Below are positions 2,321 through 62,078 of a stretch of DNA of 64,000 bases, piece after piece. Origin of the DNA: Malacoraja senta (lineage: Eukaryota); contig CM075990.1 in the NCBI GenBank assembly GCA_038087875.1, positions 16,060,001 to 16,124,000 of the forward strand. Direction: 5' to 3'. Position numbers and translations under genes: made by a program. Numbering within the stretch: the stretch's first letter is position 1; every line of letters starts with the position of its first letter. The notes beneath the pieces are model-generated. The model was not told where the DNA came from and ran no database searches. It was given only the letters and a program-made list of their open reading frames with translations.

Positions 2321-2524
2321 TTAGGAAGGAACTGCAGATGCTGGTTTGCACCAAAGATAGACACAAAATGCTGAAGTAACTCAGCGGGACCGGAAGCATC
2401 TCTGGCGAGAAGGAATGGATGATGTTTCGGGTCAAGCAAGAGTCTCGACCCGAAATGTCACCCATTCCTTCTCTCCAGAAATGCTGCCTGTCCCGCTGAG
2501 TTACTCCAGCATTTTGTGTCTATT
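2321..2524. mobile_element. Fold-back (inverted) Penelope-like terminal-repeat insertion, family A
   Basis: Minus-strand copy joined head-to-head to a plus-strand copy; flanked by ACTGATCTTATAGT (2307-2320) and ACTGATCTCATAGT (2525-2538). Confidence 0.85.
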
Positions 2525-2554
2525 ACTGATCTCATAGTGATTGTGACAAAAAAA

Positions 2555-2820
2555 AACTTCAAGTTGTCCTTGCTTTCCCTCTCTCTTTGTTGGAAGGCAG
2601 GAGGAATTTCCCCTCCCCTTCCCAGTTCTCCCACCAGTCTTACTGTCTCCGACTACAATCTATCTCTGTACCGCCCACTCCTCTGACATCAGTCTGAAGA
2701 AGGGTCTCGACCCAAAACGTCACCCATTCCTTCTCTCCAGTGCTGCCTGTCCCGCTGAGTTACTCCAGCATTTTGTGTCTACCTTCGAATCAAACCAGCA
2801 TCTGCAGTTCTTTCCTACTC
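2555..2820 (+). mobile_element. Penelope-like element 3' end with mutated hammerhead core
   Basis: Matches the 3' region of the GIY-YIG element at 54443-55780; core CTGAAGAAGGGTCTCGACCCAAAACGTC at 2694-2721 (GAAA changed to AAAA). Confidence 0.8.
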
Positions 2821-3891
2821 ACTTCTGATATGAATTTGTTTTCTATTATTGATATAAGGCAGTAAAATCCAATCCATGTAGACACAAGGAACTGCAGATT
2901 GTGGGATCTTGAGTAATCTTGATTATCTGAACATCACTTTCATACTTGTGGGATCCTGTGCAAAAACCAGATGCCATTTTTATCCACATTACAACAGCAA
3001 TTCTGCACCATAAGTATTGGTGGCTGCAGATTGCTTTATGACAGAGGACATTAACAGTAAATATATAAACTTGGTTCTTTATTGCAGCAGACTGAAAGCT
3101 CCACTAGATTTACTAATTTCTCCTGTCTGAAAATCAAACTACTAATCTTCCAAATATTCTGTTTACCCCAAGAAACACAAATCTTAAAGCAATCGTTAAC
3201 CTGTTATAAATCTTATTTTACACATTTAATTAATTTCACTAATGCCAAGATAGACATGCTTTTTTTGCCTGATGCAAAAAACCCATCAAATATCAATTTT
3301 TGTTTATGAAATATTGTCACAAGACCTGGCGCTGAAAAATAAGAGCTTTCTCTTCTCTATATCAGGCAGTGCATGTTGTAATCACACTAAGATAATTGAA
3401 AATGAATTGAGAATTGTCTGGTAGACTAAAAGGTGAAAAAAGGACAATGCACATGTCTGGATTAGAATATTTATTGGTTCACCAATGCTCTCGAGAAGGA
3501 AACAAGATCACAGAAATCTGCTCTGAACATGAATTAATTTAGCAGGTTTCAGGGATATAATGTAAAAACAAAAACACACTGTTGTCACATGCTCTATTAA
3601 TGCATCATTGAATTGTAAATTGTTTCCTTCCCCACATTTGCTGTTCAATTATTTTCAGCAGATTTCATTTTAATACAGTATTGCCAAAGTTAGCCACCTT
3701 CTGGGAAAAAGATATGAATAGTGAATATGGATTGAGATCAAAAATGAAATTGCTTGTATTTAAATATACTGACGGAAGATGGAAATGCCAGTTTTCATTA
3801 ACTACAGATTGTTTATACGTTTGAATCTCTATATTTTAAATTTACTGTAGTCAAAATTAATATTAAAAACAACTGGTACGAGGGTACTCAC

Positions 3892-4002
3892 CAACACAAT
3901 CCTCAGCCATGTTTCTTTTACCACATTCTGCTTGGTCTAGAATGATTCAGCTTGCAACTTTTGAATTTCTTAATACAGCAGTAGTGCTATTCATGCTTCT
4001 TC
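3892..4002 (-). CDS. Candidate first coding exon of an unidentified minus-strand gene (5'UTR plus ATG at 3910, MAEDCV...)
   Basis: Acceptor TTTGATTCTGTTGCAG, donor TTG|GTGAGT, Kozak-like AAACATGG; all three frames are closed upstream within the exon; downstream exons not found in the window. Confidence 0.5.
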
Positions 4003-4559
4003 CTGCAACAGAATCAAACAAATTAGTTACTGAAAACTTCTAACCAACATATGATGAAGACATAAGGCACCAAAGGAGGAGTTTGAAATTTGTTGGAACG
4101 GGACTCATTACAAGATCTAACGTGTAAGAATTGGTAATGACTTGAAAAATAATAAATGTCACAAAAGATCTAGATAATTAGTTACAAAACAATGAATGAT
4201 GTTGCAATATTGGTTCAGGGTATCATGCAAGAGCTAAATAAATGGGGATGTAGCAAAAAACTGTTTCATTAATATAACTAAACTAAACTCCAATCATGAT
4301 TTAACGTACTTCTTTTTGGCCATCTACTGAGCTCATGATTTTTTCCTCCTCAATACCCACAGCAATTATAAGCATCCTTGCGAATATTGAAACAGTGCAA
4401 CAAACCTAGGCACATGGCGGCCCAGTGCAATGCAATCATCTACAAAAACTACAAGCGGGAAAACCACCAGATCAAGGACTGCAAACGATCATTGTCACGG
4501 TTTGTACTAGCAGCTGCATAACGGGCAACACTGCAATCTATGATATGTTACCCAGGATG

Positions 4560-8580: not shown

Positions 8581-11500
8581 CTGAAAACCTTGATGGTAAA
8601 GCTAAACTCTGAATGAATCATTAAACTAACTAATTTGGCACCTACATTGAGGGCCAAAGGGCCTGTCACGTGATGTAATATTCTACATTCTAGATTAACT
8701 TAAATGAAAATTAAAAAACACTGCAACTGTACAGAAAATGCTAGAGACGTTCAACAGGAAGAATCAATGGAAAGAAAAACAGGGTTAATGTTTCAGATTT
8801 AAGACCATTTATCAGAACTGTAAAAGAGAGAAAATAAGGTCATTATAAATTGCGGAGAAAATACAGGGGGTAGGACAGTCTTTGATATGGTGACCAGGGT
8901 TGCCGTGGGGATAAATTGCAAAGTCATCCAATCATTGAATTAAAGGGACAGGTAGACAGAGAGAAAACATAGAACAAAAGCTCTGAGATGACATTAGTTA
9001 TAGAGTGAAAATTCAAACAAAGGAACTCTGAAAAGGTGCACAGTGCAAGGCTGTCAGACATGCCCAGCAGGTAGGGCTGTGCTAATGAGAGGAAAACAGC
9101 CAATATCTGTCTGCCGATCTGTTGTTTCCAAATAGGGGAAACAGTTCATCATAATCCAGGAAGTGCCTCGTAATAGTTTTTGGCAGTGATTGTTGAAAGC
9201 TGGAAATTAACTTGGTTTTTAAGAGATTGGTCCAAGCTTGCGTCATTAGGAAAATAAAACACGGGGAAAACTGCATACATAAAAGCATTCTCAAGCAAGT
9301 CCACATGGATATTTATCACAACCCTCACATGGATATTTATCAGAATCCTATCAGCTAATTAGCATGCCTGCTAAATACCACTAATTTTGAGATAATTGAA
9401 GGAACAGGACCATTACTTTTTCTTAAGGCTATGTATGTGTCTGGGCAGCCTCTTACACAGAAGCAAATACTAAGGTGAAAGTTAGGTTTTTAAGAGGCCA
9501 TAAACACCTCTGTTGTTTTAGTTCTGTAACCATGCACATATCACTTGTTCACTTGAACAACTATCAGAACACATACATTACAGAAAATGATGGTATGGAT
9601 GGTGGGACAGAATCCAAGATACAAAAACTGGTAAAGAAATTGGAATGGACCAAGTGGTGAAAAACCTTAATCTCAGTAATACAGGATGCCATTTGATATT
9701 CTAGTAAGGTTGTTTTATGTGGTAGCAAGTCTATTAACCTCATGGGAGAGATGCAAACAAGTTTGCAGATGTGATAGGCATTGATCTGCATAGCAGTGTG
9801 CAAATTTAAGGCATACAAAAAAATAAACATTCTCCCATGCTTGAATATATTTTGGAAGCTTACAAGATTGAAATGTATGTTAAAAAAAAGACAAATTACA
9901 ATGGTCAAAAAAGGTCAATTGTCAACATTGCCTGGATGTTTGCAGAACATATGGACATCACATTGCAGTCAGTTATCGGAAAGATGACTTGCACACAAGA
10001 AAACCCAAAATGTTGAAAAGCAAGATTACCTTGTGAACACCTCAATCAAGGTAACAGCATGGCTGAACAAGTCTACAGGTGAACATCTATTACTTATTGT
10101 ATGAGAGTGACTTACATTTGAAAACTCATACTTCATCAAGATCTGATTAAACACTTTCGGATATGGATTCTGGTAAAAGCAGATTGGGAAATTAAACACA
10201 TTTTAAAATGAAACTTTATACTTGCAATTAAATAGGAATTATTTAGGGCAAGAGACTACCCTTTGGCAAATCACGTCACATGTCAACTTTTAAAAGCTAT
10301 CAAATTAGCCTCACTGCCTTGCTCTTTTCCCACAGCACACTGAAAAATATAAATCCCATTCTATTTTGAAAGTTACTCCTGAGTGTTTCAGGTATCCCTT
10401 TTGGAAATAAATTATACAGGAATAATAACTGCTGTTTTCCTCCTTTCTCTGGATTTTATGCCAAATTATAGTAAATTTATCCCTTTCGGTCATCAACATT
10501 TCTGCCAAAAGAACATTTGATTCCTCTCTACTTCATCAAAACTGCCTCAATTTAGAACACACAAATTACTGGCTGTAATTCCAATCCAAGCCTCTCTGAT
10601 TATTACGCACTGGTGAAGCCTTCACCCTGAGGCCCATTCAAGTAGTTCTCCTCTTCTTCGTTTTCACATTCTTCCCAAAATGGCCATAATTGGGCACAAC
10701 ACTTTAGTTCTGTATTCGAAAATGCCCTGACCACCAGACATGCCTGAAAATGAAATGCCAGCCTGCTGAAGCTAAAACATATTCTACATCCATGCTAAAC
10801 AGCAAAAACTACAACATTTAAATGTAAATTCAAATGTAAACAAGCTGTTCAAAGCTGTTTAAGATGACCAGAAACAAGGCCACAAAGAATTCCTCCAGTC
10901 TTTTCCTTTCAATACATATTCTTATAACTTAATTTCAACACCTATATAGGTCATTATTCAGACACAAATGGTCTCAATTTGTTCATTTAGACAAATAATA
11001 AATGCTAAATTATATACTCTCATCACCATAAATACAACGTGCAAATTCAGAGCACGAAAGGTGTTTTCTCTGCATGAAGATCATCTTATTCTAGTGTGGT
11101 GCTAGACATTAATAATAATTTAATGGTTTGGCCGGCCCCATATCTATCACCTGAACATTCACTACCTCTATTACCAGCTCATCATGACTGGATTGTATAC
11201 CAGCGATAAATTGTTTCGCAGTTTTCTACCCAACAGCACTGTGGACCCCAGCCTGCACCAATTCAAGGATATTAACCTCCACCCACCAATCTTCCAATGA
11301 GGACTGAGGATAGGCTACAAATGCAGATCTTGTCGAAAATGCCCACATTACAAAGATTTTGTTTTAAACCACCAAAGTTTTTCGGCATGTATTTTGAGTG
11401 TTGACAGTACATCTTGGATTGTATAGCAAAAGCTAGTTGGCATGGTGATATGCAAGATGCTCAGGGATATGAAGCCACCATCATCAGGGTACACAAACAG

Positions 11501-13589: not shown

Positions 13590-13715
13590 CATCTGAAGAT
13601 GGGTCCCGATTCAAAAAATCACCTATCCACGTTCTCCCAAGATGCTGCCTGACCTGCTGAGTTATTCCGGCCCTTTTTTTTTAGTAAACCAGCTTCTGCA
13701 GTTTCTTGTGTACAT
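13590..13715 (+). mobile_element. Solo Penelope-like terminal repeat, diverged
   Basis: CTGAAGATGGGTCCCGATTCAAAA...GATGCTGCCTGACCTGCTGAGTTA...AAACCAGCTTCTGCAG. Confidence 0.7.
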
Positions 13716-15632: not shown

Positions 15633-16842
15633 AGATGTCAAGTCAAGTCAAGTCACATTTATTTATATAGCACATTTAAAAAACAACTCTCGTTGGCAAT
15701 ATATGTGTTGTGTTGCTATGGGAAGCTTTTCTCTGAATGGTACTCTTTCTGCAGGTATGCAGTCTACAGGTAAGAGAATTCTGATTACACCATAATCAGA
15801 GCAGAGTTGTTGTTTTAATTAACTAAAAATGGAAGTTACATTGTTTGAAAAGTAGCATTGCACAAGTGACAGTAGAAGAGATTACCTTTTCAGTTTCCAA
15901 AGCAAAAACCTGAAGTGGCCTCCTGCAACAAGCCGGCAGCCTGCAATGTTGCACCTTTGTAAGCTATATCATTTTTCTGTATGTAGTTTTTCCCCAAAAA
16001 ATTATGTCAGAGCAAATTTCTATTCATTATCTCAATTTTTTGGGAGTGATATGTAAATTCCAGAAGAACGTCATTCTGTTACATAAACTGCTGTAACGCA
16101 CAGGCACATTGTATTTACAAAGACCTAGTATTATCTGTAACAACCTTTCCCAACGTCACATACAGGGTAACCTGTGACATCCAGCAGTGAAAAAAGTAGC
16201 TGGTTAGAGAAAAATTCTCAAAGACAATAAACAAATAATCTTAAAAACACAAATATTGGCTAACTTTTTATGATATTTTATATTCTGCATAATATAAATT
16301 AATGTAGAAGTTACAAATAAAACCTTTGAAAATTATTATATATTTGATATTTTGCTCTATAACATAATCTGATAAATTGATAATCCTTGTATCTACAATT
16401 AATTTATTAGGCCAGGGAAGTTGGAGAGCATTAATTGTTTTAGTACACCATTAAAAATCCCAACCTTCTGAAAACATCATTATAGTCAGGATATTTTTAA
16501 GAATAGCTTTTGTCTGATTTCTGAAGAGCTTGGCAACAAAGAATGCAAAATAGCACACCCGCAGAAGGCATGACTGGCAGTATGTCTAGTTTCATTATGT
16601 AATAACAGCAAACACTTATGTTTATCAATAGTGTATTTCATTGATAGACCCAGACATTGACTTTGACGGAATCATGTACAATAACAGTCATTCGACAGCT
16701 ATGGAAAACTTTAAGTTATTAGTCTACAGATAATCAGAACTGTATTTCTCTGCTCAATAGAATTATCAACACCAGAATCAGAAGATTACAAGTTTGTTGC
16801 ACGATCTGCAATGAATTAAATTCTATAGATTGATGTAATAAA

Positions 16843-16968
16843 AAGGAACTACAGATGCTGGTTTATACCAAAATTAGACACAAAATGCTGGAGTAATTCA
16901 GCAGGTCAAGCAGCATCTCTGGAGAAAATGGATAGGTGACATTCTGGATCAGGACCCTTTTTCAGACT
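16843..16968 (-). mobile_element. Solo Penelope-like terminal repeat, diverged
   Basis: Reverse complement of the family A repeat, starting at the hammerhead-like core. Confidence 0.75.
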
Positions 16969-19249: not shown

Positions 19250-19385
19250 TCCCCGAAAGAAGGGTCTCAACCCAAAGCATTACCCATACATTTTCTCCAG
19301 AGATGCTGCCTGACCTGCTGAGCTACTCCAGCACTTAGTGTCTACCTTTGGTATAAATTAGCATCTGCGGTTCTTTATTTTTACA
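19250..19385 (+). mobile_element. Solo Penelope-like terminal repeat, diverged
   Basis: AGAAGGGTCTCAACCCAAAGC...GATGCTGCCTGACCTGCTGAG...AGCATCTGCGGTTC. Confidence 0.7.
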
Positions 19386-19614: not shown

Positions 19615-19703
19615 TGAAGATAGACAAAAATGCTGGAGAAACTCAGCAGGTGAGGCAGCATCTATGGAGCGAAGGAATAGGTGACGTTTCGGGTCGAGAT
19701 CCT
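19615..19703 (-). mobile_element. Solo Penelope-like terminal repeat with mixed A/B features
   Basis: Family A stem II and GAAACGTC joined to family B body TTCCTTCGCTCCATAGATGC. Confidence 0.75.
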
Positions 19704-21945: not shown

Positions 21946-22469
21946 CAGGAAATACTAATACAATATTAACATGGATTTTGGTTATAGCAGATGGACCTAC
22001 CCACCTTCACTGCCAAGCCAGACTGCTGACCCCAGCCCAGCTCACACTGCCGCTCCAGCCACTTGTAGGCCAGGGAGCTAACACCCTTCACCTCCCCGGC
22101 CTGCATTGTCTTCCCGGCCACTTCCAGGCCAGGCTGCTGACCTACACTTCCAGGCTGTCAATGCCCACACAGGTTCCATGGCCGCTTCCTGGCCATGCCT
22201 GCCCCTTACTTGCACTCTGGCCACCTTTGGGCCGCAACCAATGACTCAGCTGATCCTCGCCTCTGCCCCGACCGAGAGTCTGAAGAAGTCTAAACTTTCC
22301 CTATCCATGTTCCCCAGGGATGCTGCCTGGCCTGCTGAGTTACTCCAGCACTTTGTGTCCTTTTATGTGATAACCAGCATCGGCAGCTCCTTGTTCTACT
22401 ACTTATACAATGCTAATCGGTTATCGCGGATAATCAGCAATAACGGTCTGTTATAACGAGGATTTAGTG
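21946..22469. mobile_element. Tigger/pogo-like MITE with nested Penelope-like repeat (22275-22400)
   Basis: Right end GTTATAACGAGGATTTAGTG-TA resembles the element at 51852-52246; left end degenerate. Confidence 0.5.
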
Positions 22470-23595
22470 TACTTCACTTTAAACCAATATCGTGCGCTTC
22501 TACAAACCAATCCACACAAAATCATATATTTACTGAGGCACTGAAACATTTACTGAAACTGAGGCACGGCTGTTTGAGAAACTGGATTTATCTTATAATT
22601 TTAACAATTCACATCTATGTGACACCATAAACATGAGATGTTGCTCAGGATGTTTTCTGAGGGAATAAAAATACCATCAGACCGAAGTATGGTCATACTT
22701 CAGCTGATGTCATATGCTTGAATTATAAAATAATAGAGGTATTGCTATAATATTTACAAATCAGAAGCCATGCAATTGATTCCAACAAAAACCTACTTCA
22801 ACCTGTCAAAGATTATGACAAATTTAGGTATCATCATCTGTAACATACTTATAACTCATCTCTCCCATTAAAACCACAACCTCTTATTTCAGATTCTAAC
22901 ATTCTTTGCAAAACATTTACTGAACATAGGTTTCATCTGTTCCACATTTAACCAAAGTGCATTGATATCATGCCAAAGGATAAAATTCCAGCTAAATGTC
23001 AAACCATGACGTAGTTGCAGCTCTGGGTATTTTAGTAATATTTTTTTTTTAATCAATATTTACTGTGAGAATATCAAAAGAATGTAGAAGCTGTATTTGA
23101 TAGCATGTAAATGTATATAAAACGGCATCTTCCTAACTTTATACTTTAAATTTTTTACATAAATAACGGAATCACTGAATCACAGAAACACACAGCACAG
23201 AAAAAGGTCATCTCCAACCATGTTAACTCCAACTATGGTGCCACCATTCATTAATCCCATTTGACTGCTTTATGCTCATATCACTCCACACATTTCCTAT
23301 CCAACCACCAGTCTATATTGCAATTGAATCTGCCTCCATCATAGATGACAAAGATGATTATAAAAAATTACAGCAGGACTGTGATCCGTTGGGCAAGTAG
23401 GCTGAGGAATGGATAAAGGAGTTAAATGCAAGGTGGTGCATTTTAGCAAGTTAAACCAGGGCCGGACCTGCACAGTGAACCTTCTCTGTACTCCCTCTAT
23501 GGCAAGAATGTCTTTCCTCAGATTAGGAGACCAAAACTGTACACAATACTCCAGGTGTGGTCTCACCAACTCCCTGTACAACTGCAGTAGAACCT

Positions 23596-23623
23596 CTGAA
23601 GAAGGGTTTCGGCCCGAAACGTT
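23596..23623 (+). ncRNA. Minimal hammerhead ribozyme core (family B)
   Basis: CTGAAGA-A-GGGT(TTCG)GCCC-GAAA-CG-TT; the 5' strand of stem I is replaced by host sequence. Confidence 0.65.
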
Positions 23624-23689
23624 ACCTATTTCCTTCGCTCCATAGATGCTGCTGCACCCGCTGAGTTTCTCCAGCATTTTTGTGTACCT
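23597..23689 (+). mobile_element. 93-bp solo Penelope-like repeat (family B) inserted in CR1
   Basis: 14-bp TSD TGCAGTAGAACCTC (23583-23596, 23690-23703); the uninterrupted CR1 site is seen at ~59381. Confidence 0.92.
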
Positions 23690-25075: not shown

Positions 25076-25077
25076 GA

Positions 25078-39775: not shown

Positions 39776-42700
39776 TAACCCTATCTCAGAGCTGTGTGTA
39801 TACATTTTTGGAAGCATCACTAAGTACAGTACGTTGACTTTATGCAGCTAAGCAGTTTCGTTATTTAATATTGTTAACCTCTGTAACGTAATGAGAATAA
39901 TCCTATATTAATCAAACTAAATCATGTCAATTTTAGTGAAATGCTGAAGCTATTCATTTGGTTCACTCAGTTCACATTTTAATGAATGCATTTATTGTTA
40001 TTACAACTTTATGCCATCCCATTGGTATAAATAAAATTAATGGTTTCTACTGGAATATTGACCTCAACATCGAGTAAATTTAGTACAGTGGAGATATTTA
40101 TTTCACTTAACCTAGGACTATCCAATGCAGATTATTCCTACACAACCACAGTGCTCTGTACAGAGTGAGGTTAACCTTTCATTACTCTTCCTTCAGCAGG
40201 CAGATACTGTAGGTTGCAGTGGTCCTCCATGTGAACTGTGATTTAAATCTGGATATTCCTTACAGGAGAATGGTGCTCTGGCATTGAAATTAATCAACAG
40301 CCCAGTTCCACCTCCATGACAGCTCAGAACAGGTATGACAGCATTTATCCTTAGAGAATTGCTGCTCAAGAAGGCAGTGTCCCAGGACTAACCTCTTCAG
40401 CTGCTTCATCAACAACCTAAACATAGGTAAGCATTATTTGTTTGAGCCTAAGTACAAAACTTATTTAAACAATTGGAGACACAAAGAACTGCAGATGCTG
40501 GTGTACTTGGTAATTCAGAGGGTCAGACAGCTTCTCTGGAAAACATTTATGTTCTGTGTGAGAGAAGATCAGTCTGATAATTTCATCAGTCTGAGGAAGA
40601 GTCCCCATCCGAAACATCAGCCTATCCATGTTCTCCAGGGATGCTGCCTGACCTGTTGAGTTACTCCACCACTTTGTGTCTTTCATTCCGGTTCTGCAGT
40701 TTTATTTCTTGAATTACAGTTGAACGTGCATTTTTAAAATCTGTCATCGTATGACAAAGGACAAAATATAACTGAAGGAAAAGCAAATAACTGCAGAAGC
40801 TGGAAAACTGAAATAAAAACAGAAATTGCTGGAAGCATTCAGCATGTCAGGCAGCATTGGAGGGTGGTAAAAGAGTCAACAGGTCTGTGCCATGGATCAG
40901 GAAATGGCATTAATTGAATTCCACCATGACAGCTGGGGGACTTAAGTTCATATAATTAAATAAATTAGGAGCTAAAAGCTTGCCCTGCCAATGGTGACCG
41001 TGAAACTACTGGATTGTCATTCAGATTCTTCTGGTTGATCAAAATCCTTTCAGAAGGAAATCTGCTGCCATTATTAGGTCTGGATTATATGTGACTCCTG
41101 ACCCACCAATGTGACTAACTGTTACCCACTAATCTACTATTCTTACGCTCTTGTACTTGGGTATGCTTGTGCTTATGTAAAGCAACATTTTACAGAATGG
41201 GATGAATAGATAGAATTTCACTGTACCTAGATGCGTGTAACAATGAAGCACCATTGAACCCCCCTCATTACAGGGACAGTTAGATATGAATGATAAACAC
41301 TGGCAATGTGAGCAACATATAAATGCCATGTATAATTATGAAAAATATGTATCTGCTGAATATTTCCAGTGTTTTCTGTTTTTGTAATTAAAATCTCAAT
41401 TATGTGATATTCCTTTCCTGCTACATACTGAAAGTGCTAGAGTCAATAATACTTATTTGTAGGATGAGTCATTCTCCCGAGCGTGAACTGAATTCACTGC
41501 ATATTTCACTGCATATTCACTGCATATTTCATCAATGAAGAAATTAGAATTAACAAAGGATAATATAACAAAGAAAAGGGCCGCTTGGTGCATCATCTTT
41601 CTTTCAAAGACCAATCCAATTTATTCAATTTCCCAATCATTTCTGGTCCCATGAAATTGTCCCCTGCAAGTCATTATCCAGCTGTCTTTTGCAAGTTGTC
41701 ATTGAATCTACTTTCAGCATCGTTGTAGGCAAACCATTCTAAATCCTCACTATACACCACGTTATCTCTCAACATTTTATCGATTATCGTAAGTCTTATT
41801 CTGTTCCTGAAGAATTTTCAGCTGCTGAAAATTATTTCTCTTTAATTACTTACCAAAAAAAATCAATGTTTTGAACATCTTAAGCAAATCTTAGGTTATC
41901 CACTGCCTTTCGAAGAGAACTGCTGAGTTATCCTATTCAGTCGTTTTTAATGGTCTCCAATTCTAGTAAATCTCACCGATATTCTCTCTGGGGACTTGGC
42001 ATGTTTGCTAAAATATGATGGCCAGAATTGCTCACAGGTAAGAATTTAGTAAAAGTGTAGCATGAGTTCCATGCTGTTATGTTGAATGCCTCTGATTACA
42101 AAGCCAGTATGCTTCTATAACTGCTGTGAGCTTGGAACTGTCATAGAACACACAGAGGGGGAGCCCAGTTCCATTTCTACATAAAAGATTCAATGAATTC
42201 AAGTACAACATTTCCTTTGCCTTGACCTATGGATTCATATTTTACACACTTTTTTTCCTCTCTGTACTGAACTATATTTTCACCTGCAAAATAAAAATAA
42301 TTTGATGTGTACAAGTGGCTGCCATATTCATGAAAGTTCTCATTGCTTCTCAGTAAAGTGATTAGAAGGAAAACATTCTTAGAGTCTGAATTTGGATGAA
42401 TTAGAAAACTCATGGCTATTCTCTTGCACCTTGTGGAGCCTGTGTACTTAACTCCATTCTGCTGAGCATCTTTACCCCCAGATTGAATCTGAGCAAAGTC
42501 GAAGTTCCTTGCACATTGCAAGCCTATGCTGTAATGTGCATTGTCAACAGGATGGAACCCTTTGGTTCACTGAATCCATTTGTTATTAATCTATTACTAA
42601 ATTTCTTGGCTTTGCTTGAGCGAGATTCCAATCTCATGAGGAAATTGAAGCACCAACTTTAAAATGGATTATTGAACATGGAATGTTGACAATTTGCAGC

Positions 42701-49230: not shown

Positions 49231-49626
49231 AAGAATCTAATTGTTCCGTTGTAGGCATATATGATTAAACACTCTTGCCTTACTTACTCTTTCTTGGAGC
49301 AGGTTGGGGCAGCTTGTGGTTATGGAATGTGGAAGATGAGTAATAAACCTTAGAGATAACAAGACATAGATGATGATTTCAGCAGCGTTTAACCTGAGTT
49401 AACCTGAGGCAAGCAAGCAATGGCCAGTTCAAGGGTCAAATAAAATGTCAAGATTTAGAACAGTCAAACAGACAGTGGCCATGGAAAGAAATTGCAGAAA
49501 GAGTTGGGTTTATTCCTTAGTTTATTCCTTAGTTTATTCCTCAGTTAGTTCACTATAAATCCAACCAGTTTTCTAAACACAAAATGCTGGAGGAACTCAG
49601 TGGGTCAGGCAGCATTTGTGGAGGGT

Positions 49627-49945
49627 TAAAGAAGGAACTGCAGATGCTGGAAAATCGAAGGTACACAAAAATGCTGGAGAAACTCAGCGGGTGCAGCAGC
49701 ATCTATGGAGCGAAGGAAATAGGTAACGTTTCGGGCCGAAACCCTTCTTCAGACTGATAGGGGGTGGGGAGAAGAAAGGAAAAAAGGAAAAAGGCGGAGG
49801 AGGAGCCCGAGGGCTGGGGGAGGGGAGGAGACAACCAGATGGCTGATGAAGGGGAGGGGACAGCAAGGGTATTGCTCGCTGTGGCCATGGAGGAGACCCA
49901 GGACAGAGAGGTCAGATACGGAATGGGAGGGGGAGTTGAAGTGCT
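49627..49945 (-). mobile_element. Family B Penelope-like 3' fragment nested in an older Penelope-like repeat (49575-49990)
   Basis: Includes GIY-YIG-end-like sequence, terminal repeat and tail; GAGGG at both flanks (49621-49625, 49946-49950). Confidence 0.8.
49725..49752 (-). ncRNA. Minimal hammerhead ribozyme core (family B, intact)
   Basis: CTGAAGAAGGGTTTCGGCCCGAAACGTT with a 2-bp stem I (GT/AC). Confidence 0.7.
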
Positions 49946-50414
49946 GAGGGAATGGCTGGTGACATTTTGGGTTGGAACCCCTCTTCAGATTCTAGCATTT
50001 GTAGTTCATTGTTAAAGCTTTTCACCATACCTCGGTACACGTGATAATAATAATCCTATACCTAAATCTGTAATCACATTTCTAGTTTATAAATATTCAT
50101 TAATATTCAGTGCAGGGATAATAACTAATATCTTGCAGTTAACGTTCATGACTCTGTCTGCACCTTCCTGTGTTCAGTCACTGCTTCAGAGATGTTAAAT
50201 AAGGGGAGCTGATTGAACATTGTTAATTAGCACACCAGCACCATTGTTTCCTGACCCATCATAATGGTCTGTCTAACTTTATGAGCTCAACAAAACCATT
50301 AGCAAGAAAATCCCATTTGCTTTAAAAGTCCCAGGTGATGTAAAGGAACAAAAGCAAATGAAAAACAATCTCAAAAAATTAAAAGGCAGTCTTTTTTCTT
50401 AAAAGTGGAATGAG

Positions 50415-50715
50415 TAACCCTTGGTTTCCCTCTCTCTCTGTCCCTCCCCCACCCTAGTTCTCTGACTAGTTTCACTGTCCTGATTAATTTTACTGTTTGT
50501 ATGCCTTGTTGTCACCAACAATGAACCATTCCACGTTTCCTTGATGATCTTCTGCTTTGATCTATCGTGTTCACACCTTGCCCTTCCAGATCTCCAGTTT
50601 CCCTCTTCCCTGACTCTCAGTCTGCAGAAGGGTCTCGACCCGAAATGTCACCTATTTTTTCTCTCCAGAGACGCTGCCTGCCCCGCTGAGTTACTCCAGC
50701 ATTTTGTGTCTATCT
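50415..50715 (+). mobile_element. Penelope-like element 3' end, family A
   Basis: 3' region as in 54443-54790; core mutated to CTGCAGA at 50622. Confidence 0.8.
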
Positions 50716-51851
50716 ATAGAGGTTAATAACTGCCAGACAGTGGACAGGGTGTTCAATGTCAAAGAGCATGGAAACAGGCCCAAAGGCCATCTGCATCAAT
50801 GCCAACCATCGAGCAACCATCTACACTAATTCTGCTTTTCACCCAAATTCTTGCCACCACCCAACCACAATGCAGGAATTTTACAGTAGCAAAATAACTT
50901 ACCAACCCACATAACTTCGTAATGCGGGAGGAAACTGGAGAACCCAGAGAAAAATTACAGTCATAGGGAGAACATGCAAACTCCACCAAGACAGTACGCA
51001 GGGACAGGAACGTACCGAGGTTTCATGTGCTTCGAGGCCACAACACTAATCAATGTACCAGTGAGCCCCCATGTATGGGGAGAAAAGATGTCAAAGAGAA
51101 CGGTCTTTGTCCAACCATCTGCATACCAAATAACCCGCCTCACCTGTGTCCACCTATTACATGCCAAGCTTTGTACTGTGCCTCCTCCAACTTTCTCCCC
51201 CCCTCCCCTACAATCAGTCTGAAGAAGGATCTCAACCTGTAACATCACCGATCCATGTTACCCCGAGATGCTGCCTGACCCGATGAGCACTCTGTCTTTT
51301 TTTATAAACCAGCATCTGCAGTTCCTTGATTCTACAATTCATTCACCTTGTTCCAAATGCTGTGAACATTTGTTAACCTACTGTGTTGCTTGACAATGTT
51401 TTTGCCATGTATTTACTGCACTTAATCCTTTTCTGACCCCCTTCCTATTTTGTCTCCATCCTTCCTTAATTTCTTTTGAGGTTTCCATCAACCATCCAAA
51501 CTAGTTGAACAGGTTCGACCAATGCTTTTTGGCTCTTTAGAAGAATGGATTGCAGATCTTATTGAAACACATGATTCTGAGAGGGGAGCTGTTGCCAGGA
51601 TGATTCCCCCGATGGGAGTGATAAAAACATGTTTCAGGATAAGATTACTGAAATTCTATTCCCAGAAGGTCACGGATCTTCGGAATTTTCTGCCCCGGAA
51701 TGTTGTGAAGGCTGAGCCACTGAGGATGAGACGGATTTCTGGATGATAGTCAGGAAAGGAGATAGAAAACTTAGTAGCATGATATCAAGTTGACAAACTT
51801 TCCCTCAATGTCAGCAAAATGAAGAAGCTGGTCGTCGACTTCAATTTCCAA

Positions 51852-52246: not shown

Positions 52247-52559
52247 ATCACAAACAATTTGTCTTGGTCCAATCGCATTGACTCTAAAGAAAGCACACCA
52301 ATGACTCTACCTCCTCAAAAGGCTAAGGAAATTTGGCGTGACTCATAATTTCTACCGATGCAGCATGGAAACCATCCTATTGGATACCTCACAGTTTTTC
52401 CGAAGACCACAAGAACTGCAGAGAATTATGATTGCAACCTTGTCCATCAGACAAACTAGCCTATCACCCACACCCCCTTCCCCCCCACCCCCACCTCCCT
52501 CCATCTACTCTCCACTCTGTCTCTGGAAAGCAGCCAACATAATCTAACATTATTGTTCC

Positions 52560-53590
52560 TCAGCCCCGCACTGTCAGCTTCTATCCCATTCCAAAAATTC
52601 ACAAACAGGACTGCCCTGGCAGACCCATTGATTCTGCCTGCTTCTACCCCACAGATCTCATCTCTAAACCCCTTGATTCCATCCTATCCCCACTTGTCCA
52701 GTCCCTTCCGACCTTCATCCAGGACATTTCACACTCACTTCAACACTTCAATTACTTTGTTTCCAGGTCCCCATTGCCTCATCCTTACCATGGATGTTCA
52801 GTCCTTTTGCACCTCCATCCCCCTCCTCTACTAACACTCTCCTCCACCTGGCAGAACTTGTCCTCACCCTCAACAACTTTTCCTTTGACTCTTCTCACTT
52901 CATCCACGTTAAAGATGTAGCCATAGGCACTAGCATGGGCCACAACTATGCCTGCCTTTTGGTTGGTTACATCAAACCCATCGCCCAACTTTTCTCCACT
53001 ACATTGATGACTGCATCAGGGCTGCCTCCTGCACCTGTGCAGAACTCATTGATTTAATTAACTTTACCACTAATTTCCAACATGCCCTCAAGTTCACAGA
53101 CTATTTCCGACACTTCTCTCCCTTTTCTTGATCTCTGTCTCCATCACAGCGGACAGACTATCAACGGACATCTCCTACAACCCTACCGGCTAGCACCCTG
53201 CCTGTTGCAAAGCCGCAATCTCCCACTCTCAATTTCTCCATCTCTGCCGCATTTGCTCCAAGATGAGGCTTGTCATTCTAGGACATCTGAGATGTCTTCA
53301 TTTTTCAGTGAACATGGTTTCCCCCCTGATGTCACAGATGGATCCCTCACCTGCATCTCCTCTATGTCCCATAGTTCTGCTCTCACTCCCCCTGCCACCA
53401 GACAAGAATAGAGTTCCCAGGTCCACACTTTTCACCCCATCAGCCACCGTATCCAACACATCATCCTCTGACATCTCCATCACCTCCAACATGATCTCAT
53501 CACGAGTCACCCATCTTCCCATCTCCAACCCTTTCTACCTTAGTGCAGACACCACTCCCTTTGTAACTTCTTGCTTCATTCATCCCACAA
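52560..53590 (+). pseudogene. Penelope-like reverse transcriptase remnant
   Basis: LILTMDVQSFCTSIP, LAELVLTLNNFSF, VAIGTSMGHNYACLLVGY and LHYIDD motifs across frameshifts. Confidence 0.85.
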
Positions 53591-54442: not shown

Positions 54443-55780
54443 TGTGTATGAAGGAACTGCAGATGCTGTTTTAAACCAAAGATAGACACAAAATGCTGGA
54501 GTAACTCAGCGGGACAGGCAGCATCTCTGCAGAGAAGGAATGGGTGACATTTCGGGTCGAGACCCTTCTTCAAACTGACGTCAGGGGGGGTGGGAGATAG
54601 ATAGATAGATAAGGAAGTGTGAAGGTGTGAAAACGGCAAAGGGAATGGAGATCAAGGAGCATGTAGAATAGATCATTGTTAGCTGGGAGGTAACAACAGA
54701 TCAAACAGAGATAAAACGTAGTCGGAGACGGTAAGACTGGTCGGAGAACTGGGAAGGAGGAGGGATGGAGAGAGAGGGAAAGCAAGGTTTATTTGAAAGT
54801 TAGAGAAGTCAATGTTCATACTGCTGGAGTGTAAGCTTCCCAAGCAAAATATGAGGTGCTGTTCCTCTAATTTGCGGTGGGCCTCATTCTGACAATGGAG
54901 GAGGCCCAGGACAGAAGTGTGGGAATGGGAGAGGGAGTTAAAGTGTTGAGCAACCGGGAGTTCAGGTAGGTTCAGGCGGACTGAGCGGAGGTGTTCAGCG
55001 AAACAATCGGCAAGCCGATATAGAAGAGTCCACACCTGGAACAGCGGATACAGGAGGATGAGGTTGGAGGAGGTGCAAGTGAACCTCTGCCTCACCTGAA
55101 AAGACAGTTGGGGTCCTTGGATGGAGTTGAGGGGGGAGGTATAGGGACAAGTGTTGCATCTCCTGCAGTTGCATGGGGAATCTACATGAGGAGGAGGTGG
55201 TTTGGGTGGAAGGGAAGAGTTGACCAGGAAGTTGTGGAGGGAATGGTCTCTGCGGAAAGCGGAAAGGGGTGGAGAAGGGAAGATGTGGCTAGTGGTGAGA
55301 TTCCATTGGAGGTGGCGAAAATGTCGGACGATTATATGTTGTATCCGATCGCTGATGGGGTGGAAGGTGAGGACAAAGGGGACTCTCCCTGTTAGGACTT
55401 GGGGGAGGGGAAACAAGAGCGGAGCTGCCGAATATCGAGAAGACCCTAGTGGGGGCCTCGTGTATGATGGAAGCGGGAATCCCCATTCCCTAAAGAATTA
55501 GGACATCGGGGTATGGAACACTTCATCTTGGGCGCCAATGCGGCATAGACGGAGGAATTGGGAGGAGAGGATAGAGTCTTTGCAAGAAGAAGGGTGGGAA
55601 GAAGTGTAGTCTAGATAGCTGTGGGAGTCAGTGGGGTTTATAATAGATGTCAGTTGATAGTCTGTCTCCTGTGATGGTTGGGAGATTTCAGCGATGGTCC
55701 AAGTGAATTTGAGTGCAGGATTGAAATTAGAAGTAAAGTTAATGAAGTCAGTGAGTTCTGTATGGGTGCAGGAGGTAGTC
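54443..55780 (-). mobile_element. 5'-truncated Penelope-like retroelement: RT C-terminus, Cys-rich linker, GIY-YIG endonuclease and hammerhead-bearing terminal repeat
   Basis: ORF 54679-55416: VPFVLTFHP, PCNCRRCNTC, FTCTSSNL, RLADCFAEHLRSV, PVAQHFN, RKLEEQHLIFCLGSL...MN; core (T)TGAAGAAGGGTCTCGACCCGAAATGTC at 54546-54573. Confidence 0.92.
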
Positions 55781-56163
55781 CAGTGTTAATAACTGGTTTT
55801 AATATATCATTGCCGTGTACTGGAAACAGAATAACAGTTTGAAAAGGTTTGAAAAATTGAATTCTCCAATTTTAGTTAGCTACAAAACTAGACATTTTGG
55901 AAATATAGGGTGCATCATCCAAATTCCTCATTCTTTTTCCTAATTAAAATCTTGTACGACAAAACAAAAAAAAAAGTGCTGTAAAATAAAAGTTCTGAAA
56001 CTTTTAAGAAGAAATTCAAACAAAATGTTGTACAATGGTCTGCGTTTCTTGGTTAGATGTGCTCGTTTTTAGTAACTTCACTCTTTACTGCAGCTAAGCT
56101 AAAGCGGTGCTTTCGATTCACATTCACGTCGAGATCTGAAACGTGACTGGTAAAATCAAATAA

Positions 56164-56288
56164 TGTAGGAAGGAACTGCAGATGCTGGTTTACACCGAAG
56201 ATAGACATTAAATGCTGGAGTAACTGCGTGGGATAGGGAGCATCTCTGGAGAGAAGGAATGGGTAACGTTTTGGGACGAGACCCTTCT
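56164..56288 (-). mobile_element. Solo Penelope-like terminal repeat, family A
   Basis: Reverse copy truncated within the hammerhead core. Confidence 0.8.
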
Positions 56289-56683
56289 ACATTATTCACT
56301 TATCATCCATATGTGCACTGTGAATGGCTCGAGTGTAATGTATGGTCTTTCCGCTGACTGGTTGGCACGCAACAAAAGCTTTTCACTGTACCTCGGTACA
56401 TGTGACAATATTCAGTATTCAGTATTAACTTTATTGTCATTTCACAGAGTACTTGCATATGCAGAAGAAACAAAAAATTGTTTCTCATCAGTTTTTGTCA
56501 GTGCAATTAATAAAAACAGAAATAAATACATACAACTTTAAAAATTATCATATCTAAAATAGACCTAAAATTGAACTAAAAACAGACATTCAAACCGAAC
56601 AGTGACTTTACCTTAGGAGGTAGACAAAAATGCTGTTGAAACTCAGCGGGTGCAGCAGCATCTATGGAGCGAAGGAAATAGGC

Positions 56684-56711
56684 AACGTTTCGGGCCGAAA
56701 CCCTTCTTCAG
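56684..56711 (-). ncRNA. Minimal hammerhead ribozyme core
   Basis: CTGAAGAAGGGTTTCGGCCCGAAACGTT. Confidence 0.7.
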
Positions 56712-56712
56712 A

Positions 56713-56740
56713 CTGAGGAAGGGTTTCGGGCCGAAACGTT
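56713..56740 (+). ncRNA. Minimal hammerhead ribozyme core (one stem II mismatch)
   Basis: CTGAGGAAGGGTTTCGGGCCGAAACGTT. Confidence 0.6.
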
Positions 56741-57039
56741 GCCTATTTCCTTCGCTCCATAGATGCTGCTGCACCCGCTGAGTTTCTCCAGCATTTTTGT
56801 GTACCTTCGATTTTCCAGCATCTGCAGTTCCTTCTTGAACACGAGTGACTTTACCTTGACAGGTGTCCAGCTGTCAAGGTTTGGGTGAGGTTAGATGTGC
56901 GGGGTGTATGTGTATGGGGAAGGGACATAGATAATATATTAAAACTTAAACTTAACAGAGGTAAACGGAGAGCAGTTAAACTGCGCGACTGAAATCATTT
57001 GCATTCTGTGCCAGCAACAGGTATGCATTTTTTTTTGCA

Positions 57040-57806: not shown

Positions 57807-57960
57807 TTTAAGAAGGAACTGCAGGTGCTGGAAAATCGAAGGTAGGCAAAAAATGCTGGAGAAACTCAGCGGGTGCAGCAGCATCTATGGAGCGAAGGAA
57901 TATTTCCTTCGCTCCATAGATGCTGCTGCACCCGCTGAGTTTCTCCAGCTTTTTGTCTAC
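57807..57960. mobile_element. Young fold-back Penelope-like insertion (family B), hammerhead absent, in ELOVL6 intron
   Basis: Perfect 46-bp inverted repeat 57855-57900 / 57904-57949; CTGCA at both flanks. Confidence 0.9.
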
Positions 57961-58780
57961 CTGCAGGTGTGTAAAGCCTCGGCGCCTGGTTAAAGGATGC
58001 ACCGCTCCCAGTTTAACATCAGACCCACTCAAACGCGTAAACAGTTCGAATATAGATCGAAAATCCGGTCCGGGTTATCAATAATCACGGGAGAATGCTT
58101 CTGGTCTGCTTCTGACGAGGTGTGGATTGTATTCTCGTGAAACTAGTTGTAATTTTGCATTAAAAGATGTGTTCCTTGTATTCAGAGTCGCGGTGTGTGT
58201 GTGACCTAATTGTAATTGACAGTGTGCAATGATCGGGTGTAACCGTATCTGCCCATCAGGGTTGCAGGTAAACAGGCCGGAATAGGGTGGATGCCTTCAA
58301 TAAAATGCGGATCGTGTCCAAGTGAGACATTGTAAGACATGTTTTGTAGCAATGCTCAGTGATTCTGATTGCCTGGTGATTGTTACTCAGGAACCACGGA
58401 TTTGAGAATGGGTGATTGAGGCACGATTAGCAACTTCCACCGTGACTGTAGACCTGTCAGGTACATCTGTAATCACCCCCTGATGATAGCTTACACTATC
58501 TGGCATCATTTTCCAGACAGTATAATAAATACCAACGTCGTGGTACATTACAGAATGTGAAGAATATTTGCAGCCCTTAAATTGGCCAGGCCCGATGTGG
58601 TAAATGGGATTCATTGACATTCCTGTATTTACAAGATACCAGAGTGTAACAGTGGTGATGCACAATGCTTTGTCCAGCGTGCAGCTACTTTGCAACAAAA
58701 CCCAAATATTAAAACCATAAACATGCATTACAAAACACAAAGTGCTGAGAGAACTCAGGCAGCACGTGTGGAGCAAATGG

Positions 58781-59541
58781 ACATACATAGATACATAGAT
58801 ACATAGAAAAGAGGTGCAGGAGTAGGCCATTCGGCCCTTCGAGCCTGCACCGCCATTCAATATGATCATGGCTGATCATCCAACTCAGTATCCCGTACCT
58901 GCCTTCTCTCCATACACCCTGATCCCTTTAGCCACAAGGGCCACATCTAACTCCCTCTTAAATATAGCCAATGAACTGGCCTCAACTACCCTCTGTGGCA
59001 GAGAGTTCCAGAGATTCACCACTCTCTGTGTGAAAAAGTTTTTCCTCATCTCGGTCTTAAAGGATTTCCCCCTTATCCTTAAGCTGTGACCCCTTGTCCT
59101 GGACTTCCCCAACATCGGGAACAATCTTCCTGCATCTAGCCTGTCCAACCCCATAAGAATTTTGTACGTTTCTATAAGATCCCCTCTCAATCTCCTAAAT
59201 TCTAGCGAGTATAAGCCAAGTCTATCCAGTCTTTCTTCATATGAAAGACCTGACATCCCAGGAATCAGTCTGGTGAACCTTCTCTGCACTCCCTCTATGG
59301 CTATAATGTCCTTCCTCAGATTTGGAGACCAAAACTGTACGCAACACTCCAGGTGTGGTCTCACCAAGACCCTGTACAACTGCAGTAGAACCTCCCTGCT
59401 CCTATACTCAAATCCTTTTGCTATGAAAGCTAACATACCATTCGCTTTCTTCACTGCCTGCTGCACCTGCATGCCTACTTTCAATGACTGGTGTACCATG
59501 ACACCCAGGTCTCGCTGCATCTCCCCTTTTCCTAATCGGCC
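58781..59541 (-). mobile_element. Young CR1-clade LINE 3' end
   Basis: Open 211-aa RT C-terminal ORF 58885-59520, 3' UTR and (ATCTATGT)n tail; splits an older Penelope-like repeat (58730-58780 plus 59545-59580). Confidence 0.95.
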
Positions 59542-60424
59542 ACATGCAATGTTTCTGGTCAGGATCCTCCTTCAGACTGAGGGAGTAATGGGCAGAATGC
59601 TGCAAAAGAGAGGCAGGGTGTGTGGTAAAGCTTGACAAGTGAGAGGTGGATACAGATGAGGGAGGGGGCGATTGGCAGATGGGTGGAGATGGTGACAAAA
59701 GCAGCAGCTGAACATGGGTGTTAGGTAAGGAAAGACTAGGAGGAGTGAAGTGTGAAGCCAGAGGATGGTAGAGTCTGAAGAAGGGTCCCAACCAGAAACA
59801 TCTCTTACTCTTTTTCTCCAGAGAAGCTACCTGACCTGTTGTTACTCCAACATGTAGTGTCTATATCCAGAGGGATGGATATCGGTGGAAGGGGTTGGGT
59901 GGGTGGGGGAGTGGGGGGGGAGAGGATACACTGTTATGGGACCAGGATTGTATGTGGGGTGGGGGGGGGGAAGGAGGGAGCAGAGTGACTGAGGTGAGGG
60001 GAGAGATGATTATCTACTGTGGTAGATGGTGCAGCGAGATGTGAGGGGTATATTACTTGCGATATTAGTTTAAATACAGTGCATATGTATACATATATCC
60101 ATAACAGCAGAATATATGTTTGCAGATAAGCAATATAACTGTCTTTAGTTCTTGTAATTGAATTTATTCAGAGACATGATCTGAGCAGAGATGAAGTCAT
60201 TATCTTGGTTGCTGCAGAATACAGATAATCCATAAGTGGCCCTGGTTTTAGAATTCATGTGATGTTGTTTGACACATGGAGGAGAAGTGTTCAAGTAGAT
60301 TTTTTAAAGGTCGTGGCATCCCCTGAATGTTGTTCACTTTGGAAATTATTGCAAAACAAGATTGGCAACTTTATAATTTCTTTCAAAGTCAGCGACAATG
60401 GAAAGTTGATGGAAGAGGGAGGAG

Positions 60425-60610
60425 AGTCACAAGAGACTGCAGATGCTGGAGTCTTGAGTAAAACGCAAAGTGCTGGAAGAACTCGGTGGACCATGCAGCA
60501 TCTATGGAGGAAATGGTTGTGGGTTCCAACCTGAAATGTTGTCTGTCCATTTCCCTCCAAAGATGCTGCCTGGCCCGCTAAATTCCTCCAGCATATTGGT
60601 TTTTGCACAG
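60425..60610. mobile_element. Older fold-back Penelope-like repeat
   Basis: Diverged inverted arms GCTGGAAGAACTCGGTGG...GCAGCATC / GATGCTGCC...CCCGCTAAATTCCTCCAGC. Confidence 0.7.
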
Positions 60611-61270
60611 GTCGATTGAAGACTTCTTTCAACTTGAGTTCTGCAGAGTTTGGTTGTCAGTGGAACTGAGTTCTCATAACCTTAAAGAGAAATGCATATT
60701 CATCGCTTGATGATAAAAAAAAATATGTGATGCAATGGGAATAGATCTATTGCATGTCTATCATTGCAAGAGGGACAGAGTATTGCTATAAATTTGTGTT
60801 TTGTAGAAACCGTGGTAATCGAAGAGACAAACAGCGCAGTGATGCGGCTAGTAAAGTTGCTGCAGGGACTCAGGTTTGCTCCTGACCTCCCTTCCATTGC
60901 ATGAATTATCCCCAAGGCGCTCCAGATTGCTCCCACATCCCAAAGATACGCAGGATGGGAGAAGAATTGTACTGTAGATTGGCATTGTAGATTGTCCCTA
61001 ATGTGTAGGAGACTGGTTGAATCTGGGGGAGCGGGGTGGAATAAAATAAAACTTCATATGTAATGAGTCCTTGTATGGACTCTGTGGGCTTGAGGACTTG
61101 TTTTTATGTTCTGCGACTCTATAATAACTATACACATGAGTATTGTTAAGTCCATTGCTCGGTACAGTATTGCAGCAATATTAACTGCATAAAGTTTTAG
61201 TTAGAGTAAGCTAATTTCAACCCTGGGGAGGAGTTGCCTTCTCGGATCTGAAAACAACAAAGAAACACTT

Positions 61271-62078
61271 TATGTGCAGGAAGGAACTGCAGGTGCTGGT
61301 TTACACCGAAGGTAGACACAAAATGCTGGAGTAACTCAGCGAGACAGGTAGCATCTCTGGATAGAAGGAATGGGTGATGTTTCAGATCAAGACCCTTCTT
61401 CAGACTGAGAGTCAGGGGAGAGGGAGACACAGAGATAAGGAAGGGTAAGGTGTGAAAACAAGACATCAAGAGATGTGGATCAAGGAAAATGTAGAATAGA
61501 TCATTGTTGGCTAGGTGAAGGTGACAACAAAGCAAACAAACAAAATGTAATTTGGGACAGTCAGACTGGTCGGAGAACAGGGAAGGGGGAGGGAATAGAG
61601 AGAGAGGGAAAGCAAGGGTTACTTGAAGTTAGAGAAGTCAATATTCATACCGCTGGGGTGTAAGCTACCCAAGCAAAATCTGGGGTGCTGTTCCTCCAAT
61701 TTGCACTGGGCCTCACTCTGACAATGGAAGAGGCCCAGGACAGAAAGGTTGGTGTGGGAATTGGAGCAGGAGAAAGTGTTTAGCAACTAAGTGCAAGCAA
61801 ATGTTTAAACCTTGCACAGGCTCGGTGATCGTTTCACTGAACACCTCCGCTCAGTCTGCCTAAACCTACCTGATCTGTCGGTTGCTAAACGCTTTTAACA
61901 TTTTCCTTGATCTTTTGATGTCTCATTTTCACACCTTACCCTTCCTTATCTCAGTGTCTCCCTCTCCCCTGACTCTCAGTCTGAAGAAGGGTCTTGACCC
62001 GAAATGTCACTCATTCCTTCTATCCAGAGATGCTGCCTGTCCCGCTGAGTTACCCCAGCATTTTGTGTCTAATATCTT
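61271..62078. mobile_element. Penelope-like insertion with inverted terminal repeats and GIY-YIG C-terminal fragments
   Basis: Inverted arms ~61310-61495 / ~61899-62070, cores at 61376-61403 (-) and 61981-62008 (+); 13-bp TSD CAAAGAAACACTT (61258-61270, 62079-62091). Confidence 0.9.

Follow-up and report, generated by a model that had tools for sequence, protein, structure and literature searches.

Hammerhead pseudo-long terminal repeats of an intact Penelope-like element in Malacoraja senta and rare insertions joined at the predicted cleavage site

A 64,000-nucleotide stretch of the genome of Malacoraja senta, a cartilaginous fish (contig CM075990.1, positions 16,060,001 to 16,124,000; hereafter the window) is strewn with copies of a short repeat that carries a minimal hammerhead ribozyme motif. 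The repeat is the pseudo-long terminal repeat (pLTR) of an intact Penelope-like element (PLE), and most of its copies are probably short cDNAs, primed inside the repeat and extended back to the capped start of the RNA. What is new here is a class of rare insertions that join downstream element sequence back to the exact predicted cleavage site of the hammerhead; such junctions likely record hammerhead cleavage in living cells. Both the element and the ribozyme type are of already known kinds. Positions inside the repeat are counted from C3 of the hammerhead (position 0), which places the predicted cut between +27 and +28. Comparisons with published systems refer to those parts of the cited papers that were available to us.

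The repeat and its parent element

A profile built from 10 window copies and applied at E <= 0.01 returns 40 matches on both strands of the window and none in the reversed window; 26 of the matches score at least 30 bits. An earlier first-pass annotation had described a dispersed repeat in about 20 copies: the dispersal is borne out on both strands, while the number was too low. Its families A and B are found with the starts it gave, with U-A and U-G closing pairs of stem II under CUCG and UUCG loops, and with either A or G as the first base of stem I; older lineages of the repeat are also present in the window. The family B core is found in exact form at 19,101 places of the 1.94-Gb genome; for a 34-base segment of its 3' part the count is 21,554. 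Extrapolation from 83 hits per 194 kb of flanks indicates that the family and its relatives could reach the order of 800,000 copies. There are five inverted pairs in the window and many more at loci elsewhere in the genome. The microRNA-type Rfam matches of the window account for themselves as inverted pairs of the repeat and were rejected.

Copies reaching further upstream run into open reverse transcriptase (RT) and GIY-YIG frames. A genome search with the N-terminal part of the RT finds many frames exceeding 1,200 codons, and in seven of the nine loci fetched with such long frames the hammerhead repeat flanks the open reading frame (ORF) on both sides. The repeat, standing at both ends of an intact ORF, is therefore the pLTR of the element. 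At one of these loci (L132), an ORF of 1,212 aa begins with an ATG at +163 and contains DKG, the RT motifs, a CX4CxxC linker and, at its C terminus, a GIY-YIG domain; its domain matches (RVT_1, E=7.5e-6; GIY-YIG, E=7e-4) are both under the curated cut-offs. The pLTR-ORF-pLTR unit is 3,918 bp long, and six units compared share 99.1-99.7% identity; full copies are about 99% alike, and the family is young. Among loci L130-L138 the unit length varies (3,918, 3,996 and 4,152 bp) and the frame stays open, the variation apparently residing in a Pro/Ser-rich repeat that separates the RT from the N-terminal domain. The ORF has 1,042 homologues, and a linker of the CX2-5CxxC type is present in 117 of the 120 listed; no named reference element turned up among them. 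Between RT and endonuclease (EN), this linker marks Neptune or Nematis (PMC8557442). Partial-tandem or direct-repeat pLTRs, a tail of 30-40 bp and an inverted 5'-truncated arm, all traits of EN-containing (EN+) PLEs, were all encountered. Placed by its linker, which Nematis has too, the parent is predicted to be a Neptune-type EN+ PLE.

Hammerhead architecture and conservation

The motif is a minimal type I hammerhead of the metazoan PLE kind, with self-cleavage predicted. Families A and B have the core CUGANGA, GAAA and UH, an extra base after A9 (between 9 and 10.1), G10.1-C11.1 and a palindromic 15.2-16.2, all of which they share with the published PLE pLTR hammerheads, fish Neptune elements included (PMC4209133). 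This supports the first-pass assignment of a minimal type I hammerhead with a palindromic ACGU to a PLE. Of the two caveats attached to that assignment, the extra A after A9 turns out to be a defining trait of the published PLE minimal hammerheads. The short stem I is real, as helix I has 2 bp in families A and B and not the 4-5 bp of Schistosoma families, and it is weakened as a caveat by the 2-bp helix I published for D. virilis Penelope (PMC4209133). In the older lineage loop II is longer, position 7 is U or C and stem I has a 4-bp register; 16 copies of this long-loop type are found among the first 100 of 179 matches, the 3' arm being perfect in five and differing by one transition in four (hand count).

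A strict minimal-hammerhead descriptor recognizes three intact cores in the window (23596+, 49752- and 56711-), all in family B, and none in 60 dinucleotide shuffles of it. No family A copy of the window is intact, in agreement with the decay previously described for that family. In an unanchored sample, an intact core is kept by 55 of 74 copies in family B, by 12 of 87 in family A and by 3 of 66 older copies. An Rfam scan of the window, which the first-pass annotation had suggested as a check, yields 20 matches at E <= 5 with no hammerhead among them.

We clustered 344 copies on the columns outside the motif and compared the eight clusters of at least eight copies. Across these subfamily consensuses none of the 11 core columns differs, as against 24 of 63 downstream columns (Fisher p=0.013), a contrast that bears out the claimed conservation of the core and weakens to p=0.059 when gap-only columns are dropped and only the 17 downstream columns with letter changes are counted. 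With the exception of a CpG-type change in the oldest cluster, subfamily changes within the motif leave stem II, the first stem I pair or the NUH rule intact. Selection on the core after insertion was considered and rejected, as non-CpG mismatches in family B show no difference between core (6/591) and downstream sequence (41/4,366). The core mismatch rate of older clusters, 0.045 vs 0.084 downstream, may reflect subfamily mixture or detection bias.

Junctions at the predicted cleavage site

The sequence just past the tail is found at only 339 places genome-wide. Among the first 100 places listed, 47 places or arrays were read by hand, each array being counted once. The reading gave 23 back-junctions, 13 of them upstream of -30, seven at -4..-1, one at +4 and two at +28; only the last two fall within +5..+95, and both hit +28 (p ~2e-4 if junctions were uniform). 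The first belongs to a 138-bp array with 11 anchors and identical units, which starts at +110 and ends at +129 (L286), and the second to a 165-bp array with four anchors, where one base is ambiguous (L312). The units of both arrays are devoid of the ribozyme core. Once a single junction existed, such arrays could also have expanded as DNA, although that first junction still requires a +28 end.

An independent set was drawn with a pattern for copies starting at +24..+31, which has 966 matches; 79 rows come from the first 100 listed, and from row 31 on, copies that start at +24 or earlier, those with an evident internal deletion and an inverted pair were left out. Back-junctions occur in 4 of the 14 copies starting at +28 vs 4 of the 65 starting elsewhere (p=0.03), and back-junctions to ORF-start sequence in 2 of 14 vs 0 of 65 (p=0.03). 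Two of the four junctions counted as elsewhere can also be read as +28 (L430, L447), and the other two lie at +29. The insertions L378 and L400 are single, comprise about one permuted turn, have target duplications and belong to a second subfamily. Among 18 further +28 starts, chosen without inversion- or deletion-type prefixes, the tail end is joined to +28 in two, and a third displays ORF-start sequence by eye. The +28 junctions are seen with both A and G at +28 and in two subfamilies. Literature searches found no report of cut-site junctions, of a run-off account or of a description in cartilaginous fish; the supplements of PMC4209133 and 10.64898/2026.07.22.740005 may list the family. The first-pass annotation had overlooked these junctions, as well as the intact parent element and the clustering of 5' ends described below.

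Ends and lineage of the short copies

Family B copies were picked by their 3' part, giving 91 anchors from 90 of the first 100 listed places. Their 5' starts gather at the beginning of the hammerhead: 48 lie at -6..+7, 19 at +8..+58, nine at -200..-13 and 15 upstream of that, and start density at -6..+7 is ~70-fold higher per base than just upstream. The most frequent single starts are -2, -5 and -1. Copies end at +93..+97 or +128..+132, and many short copies are surrounded by target duplications of 7-21 bp. Short and long copies have the A/G variant at +28 and a similar frequency of tails in common (11/37 short, 5/21 long), and therefore the short copies are not a separate lineage of short interspersed elements (SINEs). 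The same common variants, the two common 3' ends and the presence of an identical repeat at both ends of autonomous copies leave the SINE-like derivative family of the first-pass annotation unsupported.

At six junctions a 3' end that lies at +223..+283 and is adenylated or A-rich meets -4/-3, and in five of the six an untemplated G directly precedes -4/-3 (p=0.002), as expected for copying of a cap plus a template jump. Many junction 3' ends gather at +200..+283 (1060-1120 of L132 corresponds to element +223..+283), several with oligo-A; this clustering suggests short, prematurely ended element transcripts. The 5' boundary matches an initiator-like consensus. An internal promoter with initiator (Inr) and downstream promoter element (DPE) is present in the pLTR of D. 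virilis Penelope (PMC2377424). At the other end, the two 3' ends match the PLE tail between two RT start sites (PMC11167929), which supports internal priming. The short copies are likely run-off cDNAs, started at an internal priming site and ended where the capped transcript begins. The repeat is also present in contigs of four other organisms (in thousands in three of them), where loose ends occur at the 5' and 3' boundaries seen here.

Comparison with known systems

Hammerheads have been published for Xena, Poseidon and Neptune elements of fishes, and, as in the metazoan PLEs described, the motif here is sense-oriented in both pLTRs and mostly occurs as single dispersed copies (PMC4209133). 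The number of exact copies of one core exceeds the ~4,000-9,000 motifs of coelacanth and Xenopus (PMC4209133). With Neptune-clade EN+ PLEs the element shares a single ORF with DKG, RT, CX2-5CxxC linker and C-terminal GIY-YIG, as well as partial tandems, inverted 5'-truncated arms and the 30-40 bp tail (PMC8557442). It differs from the available description of that clade by its clear target duplications and by the lack of an evident microsatellite preference in the flanks as read by eye. The ORF, with a long Pro/Ser-rich insertion of variable length, is larger than most of the 120 listed homologues (670-1,000 aa).

The anole Poseidon element PAc similarly has two internal RT start sites ~35 nt apart, ~100-130 nt into the hammerhead-proximal region, and uses uncut RNA as the main template, as is proposed here (PMC11167929). 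The ORF of PAc starts inside the hammerhead, whereas the ATG here lies past the tail; and where the available part of the PAc study reports no RNA-seq reads at the cut site, rare DNA junctions mark it here. Animal non-LTR retrozymes are matched by short pLTR-derived tandem arrays elsewhere in the genome, with one hammerhead per unit (PMC7229834; 10.64898/2026.07.22.740005). Arrays of 384 bp x13 (L297-L309), 275 bp x10 (L313) and 254 bp x3 (L314) have one full hammerhead per unit, as does an array of 219-bp units, likewise of pLTR, tail and ORF start (L316); these arrays appear to be retrozyme-like derivatives of a still-intact parent. Retrozymes have already been derived from pLTRs in a preprint whose material includes one chondrichthyan (10.64898/2026.07.22.740005). 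Unlike retrozymes, which are tandem units of 150-450 bp with one hammerhead each, the window copies are dispersed monomers or inverted pairs, and in the 138- and 165-bp arrays, which start from the cut site, the ribozyme core is missing.

Proposed mechanism

We hold it probable, from the distribution of ends, that transcription starts at the first bases of the hammerhead (-4/-3). A cDNA primed in the 5' pLTR would then reach the end of the RNA after 95-135 nt, and the ribozyme would be deposited in DNA uncut and decay there. The element protein would prime at +95 or +130 and mostly run off uncut RNA, yielding the dispersed short copies; fold-back during copying would yield the inverted pairs, and ORF-bearing copies would need a tandem or circular template. 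With a little less assurance, we also consider it likely that a minority of the RNAs is cut after +27 and that the 3' product then either becomes a circle or is entered anew by the RT, end to end, which would give rise to insertions and arrays with a +28 junction. Cleavage as a dimer, or with the assistance of a protein, would be assumed from the literature; Lunse et al. reportedly described hammerhead cleavage as a dimer. Monomers of retrozymes are circularised by RtcB in vitro (PMC7229834). The junction of L378 contains oligo-A, which fits a template jump better than ligation.

Several observations weigh against this account. Back-junctions are also found at +29 (L371, L452), and as short slips at +7 and +31. 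Starts of plain dispersed copies are not concentrated at +28 (in this region the 91 anchors have starts at +27, +30, +30, +31 and +32, with none at +28), and the pattern listing of starts is flat across +25..+31 (hand count). The 91 anchors are not all independent, both arms of inverted pairs being counted and one locus being duplicated. No joint on +28 was seen in the contigs of the four other organisms among the matches listed (31 and 34 rows lay outside the listing). Of 2,535 copies that start at -3, the first 100 have G at -4 in 35 cases, only a mild excess (p=0.04). The monomer hammerhead fold is not favoured by energy (z=0.05 to 0.72), and the hammerhead dimer reaches -6.5 kcal/mol vs -28.8 kcal/mol for the best cofold. 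Finally, the RNA 5' ends are here deduced from DNA insertions alone.

The poor folding energies would also be explained if the motif were derived from a hammerhead and non-catalytic in families A and B, its first 30 bases being kept as a promoter and the +28 junctions arising from RT pausing at the base of a local structure. The motif does sit at the inferred transcription start, and its stem I shrank from the 4 bp of the older lineage to 2 bp; furthermore, Naiad elements thrive without hammerheads (PMC8557442), and ribozyme mutants of the anole element still insert in vitro (PMC11167929). We nevertheless regard this explanation as unlikely: all subfamily changes in the motif keep the pairing or the NUH rule, pausing should raise plain 5' ends at +28 too, which is not seen, and the junctions carry A or G at +28, in two subfamilies.

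It is still less probable that the 5' boundary is a splice acceptor, with its pyrimidine tract and CAG, or an RT stall at a C-rich tract, and not a transcription start. The sequence before -1 looks like a canonical acceptor, a donor-like site precedes the ATG, and the commonest single starts are those just upstream of C3. However, the untemplated G before -4/-3 fits a cap, and no donor-side exon was present in the 20 loci examined for the predicted spliced junction. These came from 147 matches to that junction and are mostly inverted family A pairs, and on the same 20 loci a whole-ORF intron or back-spliced exon was set aside. Some EN+ PLEs retain a spliceosomal intron close to the pLTR; here the acceptor- and donor-like sites could reflect one, although no spliced cDNA was present among the 20 matches. 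The weakest alternative, a self-propagating SINE-like pLTR derivative with an internal promoter and mobilised in trans, would account for the discreteness of the 95-135 bp units, for their target duplications and very high copy number, for the lean of short copies to G at +28 (23/37 vs 7/21 long) and for the tandem non-autonomous derivatives with a full hammerhead elsewhere in the genome, but is very improbable, given that short copies have no private variant at notable frequency and stop at the RT start sites, without the downstream sequence that the anole protein required in vitro (PMC11167929), and that the window has no tRNA gene. Nor does the window contain a tRNA-, 5S- or 7SL-derived Rfam match, although decayed heads could be missed; a copy begins at the hammerhead.

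Copies of the window and their surroundings

The copies of the window are listed in Table 1, together with the retrozyme-like arrays found elsewhere. Of the three places where the first-pass annotation had seen attachment to GIY-YIG and RT sequence, one (54443-55782) has both; at the other two (49625-49988 and 61273-62076) only C-terminal remnants of the endonuclease are present and the RT is absent.

Table 1. Copies of the hammerhead pLTR and related fragments in the window, and arrays elsewhere in the genome
Feature	Position	Strand	Evidence or composition
5'-truncated family A element: RT C-terminus, Cys linker, GIY-YIG, 3' untranslated region (UTR), pLTR with decayed hammerhead, tail	54443..55782	-	tblastn aa 865-1211 of intact ORF, 61%; profile hit 54443-54577
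Family B 3' end nested in older pLTR copy: endonuclease C-terminal remnant (internally deleted), then pLTR (hammerhead intact) and tail	49625..49988	-	blastn 98% to L132; tblastn aa 1145-1184; descriptor hit 49752
Intact minimal hammerhead: C3 at 49752, stem II 4 bp, UUCG loop, ACGU palindrome, stem I 2 bp, predicted cut 49725/49724	49723..49754	-	descriptor; cut by hammerhead NUH rule
Short family B copy from hammerhead, tailless, intact core, 13-bp target duplication, inside RT fragment of a long interspersed element (LINE)	23595..23691	+	descriptor, profile; RVT_1 hit 23629-24102
Head-to-head family B pair, fold-back at hammerhead first bases; minus arm intact, plus arm with stem II mismatch	56617..56842	both	descriptor, profile; hairpin z=-21
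Head-to-head family B-type pair, fold-back near +33, hammerhead absent	57807..57964	both	Rfam scan, profile
Inverted pair of family A 3' ends, endonuclease C-terminal remnants between	61273..62076	both	tblastn 61771-61625, 61809-61895; profile 61273-61407 (-), 61977-62076 (+)
Head-to-head family A pair, hammerhead 5' part lost	2319..2531	both	profile
Family A pLTR with tail, G12 decayed	2690..2821	+	profile
Older A-type pLTR copy, decayed	13591..13710	+	profile
A-type short copy with tail, core decayed	16840..16968	-	profile
A-type short copy, start inside core	19257..19379	+	profile
Short copy, subfamily intermediate between A and B	19616..19703	-	profile
Older A-type copy, stem II deleted	22277..22398	+	profile
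Family A short copy with tail	24278..24404	+	profile
Family A short copy with tail	33100..33234	-	profile
Family A short copy with tail	38400..38534	+	profile
Older A-type copy	40587..40705	+	profile
Family A pLTR with upstream 3' UTR, tailless	50618..50717	+	profile
Older A-type copy	51215..51331	+	profile
Old broken RT-to-linker fragment of same element family; no adjoining pLTR hit	52543..53586	+	blastn 64%; tblastn aa 678-1020
Family A short copy with tail	56165..56291	-	profile
Older A-type short copy	59772..59865	+	profile
Inverted pair, older lineage	60426..60605	both	profile
Ancient-lineage copy, longer stem I register	26618..26724	+	profile
Ancient-lineage copy	8728..8816	-	profile
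384-, 275-, 254- and 219-bp arrays (L297-L309, L313, L314, L316)	C1:28.90 Mb, C1:256.83 Mb, C1:231.19 Mb, C2:79.15 Mb		pLTR + tail + ORF-start units

LINE fragments, which we take to be CR1/L2-like, lie at 23339-25281 and 58793-59571; the first is split by the family B copy at 23595, and the second breaks up an older pLTR copy near 59546. The window also contains a degenerate GT microsatellite of 1.35 kb beside a GC-rich stretch (30949-32297), an ATGA array of 380 bp (46496-46877) and another dispersed repeat of ~300 bp in 5-6 copies (7763-14074, 35214-35528 and 63748-63910). A short frame at 57697-57786 (+) presumably resembles the first coding exon of the fatty-acid elongase ELOVL6; a search gave no match. 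Inverted family B pairs flank this frame ~850 bases upstream and 20 bases downstream.

Implications for hammerheads in Penelope-like elements

As to the role of hammerheads in PLEs, the 2014 study is, in its available part, without in vivo evidence of cleavage (PMC4209133), and the 2024 anole study finds cleavage dispensable in vitro (PMC11167929). The family is young and its insertions, tens of thousands of them, are nearly identical, which allows RNA ends to be read from DNA. The run-off account would offer a simple reason why most such ribozymes sit alone in genomes, and genomic junctions would allow cleavage and the formation of circles to be tested cheaply across the genome. On balance, we lean towards a wider reading, in which the genome is a fossil record of RNA ends, capped at -4/-3 and cut at +28, the 138- and 165-bp arrays may be rolling-circle copies of ribozyme-less circles, and the retrozyme-like arrays would have been born from an intact parent. 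If this is true, the +28 junctions would be the first trace of in vivo cleavage for a minimal hammerhead of metazoan Penelope elements, and this for one whose stem I has just 2 bp.

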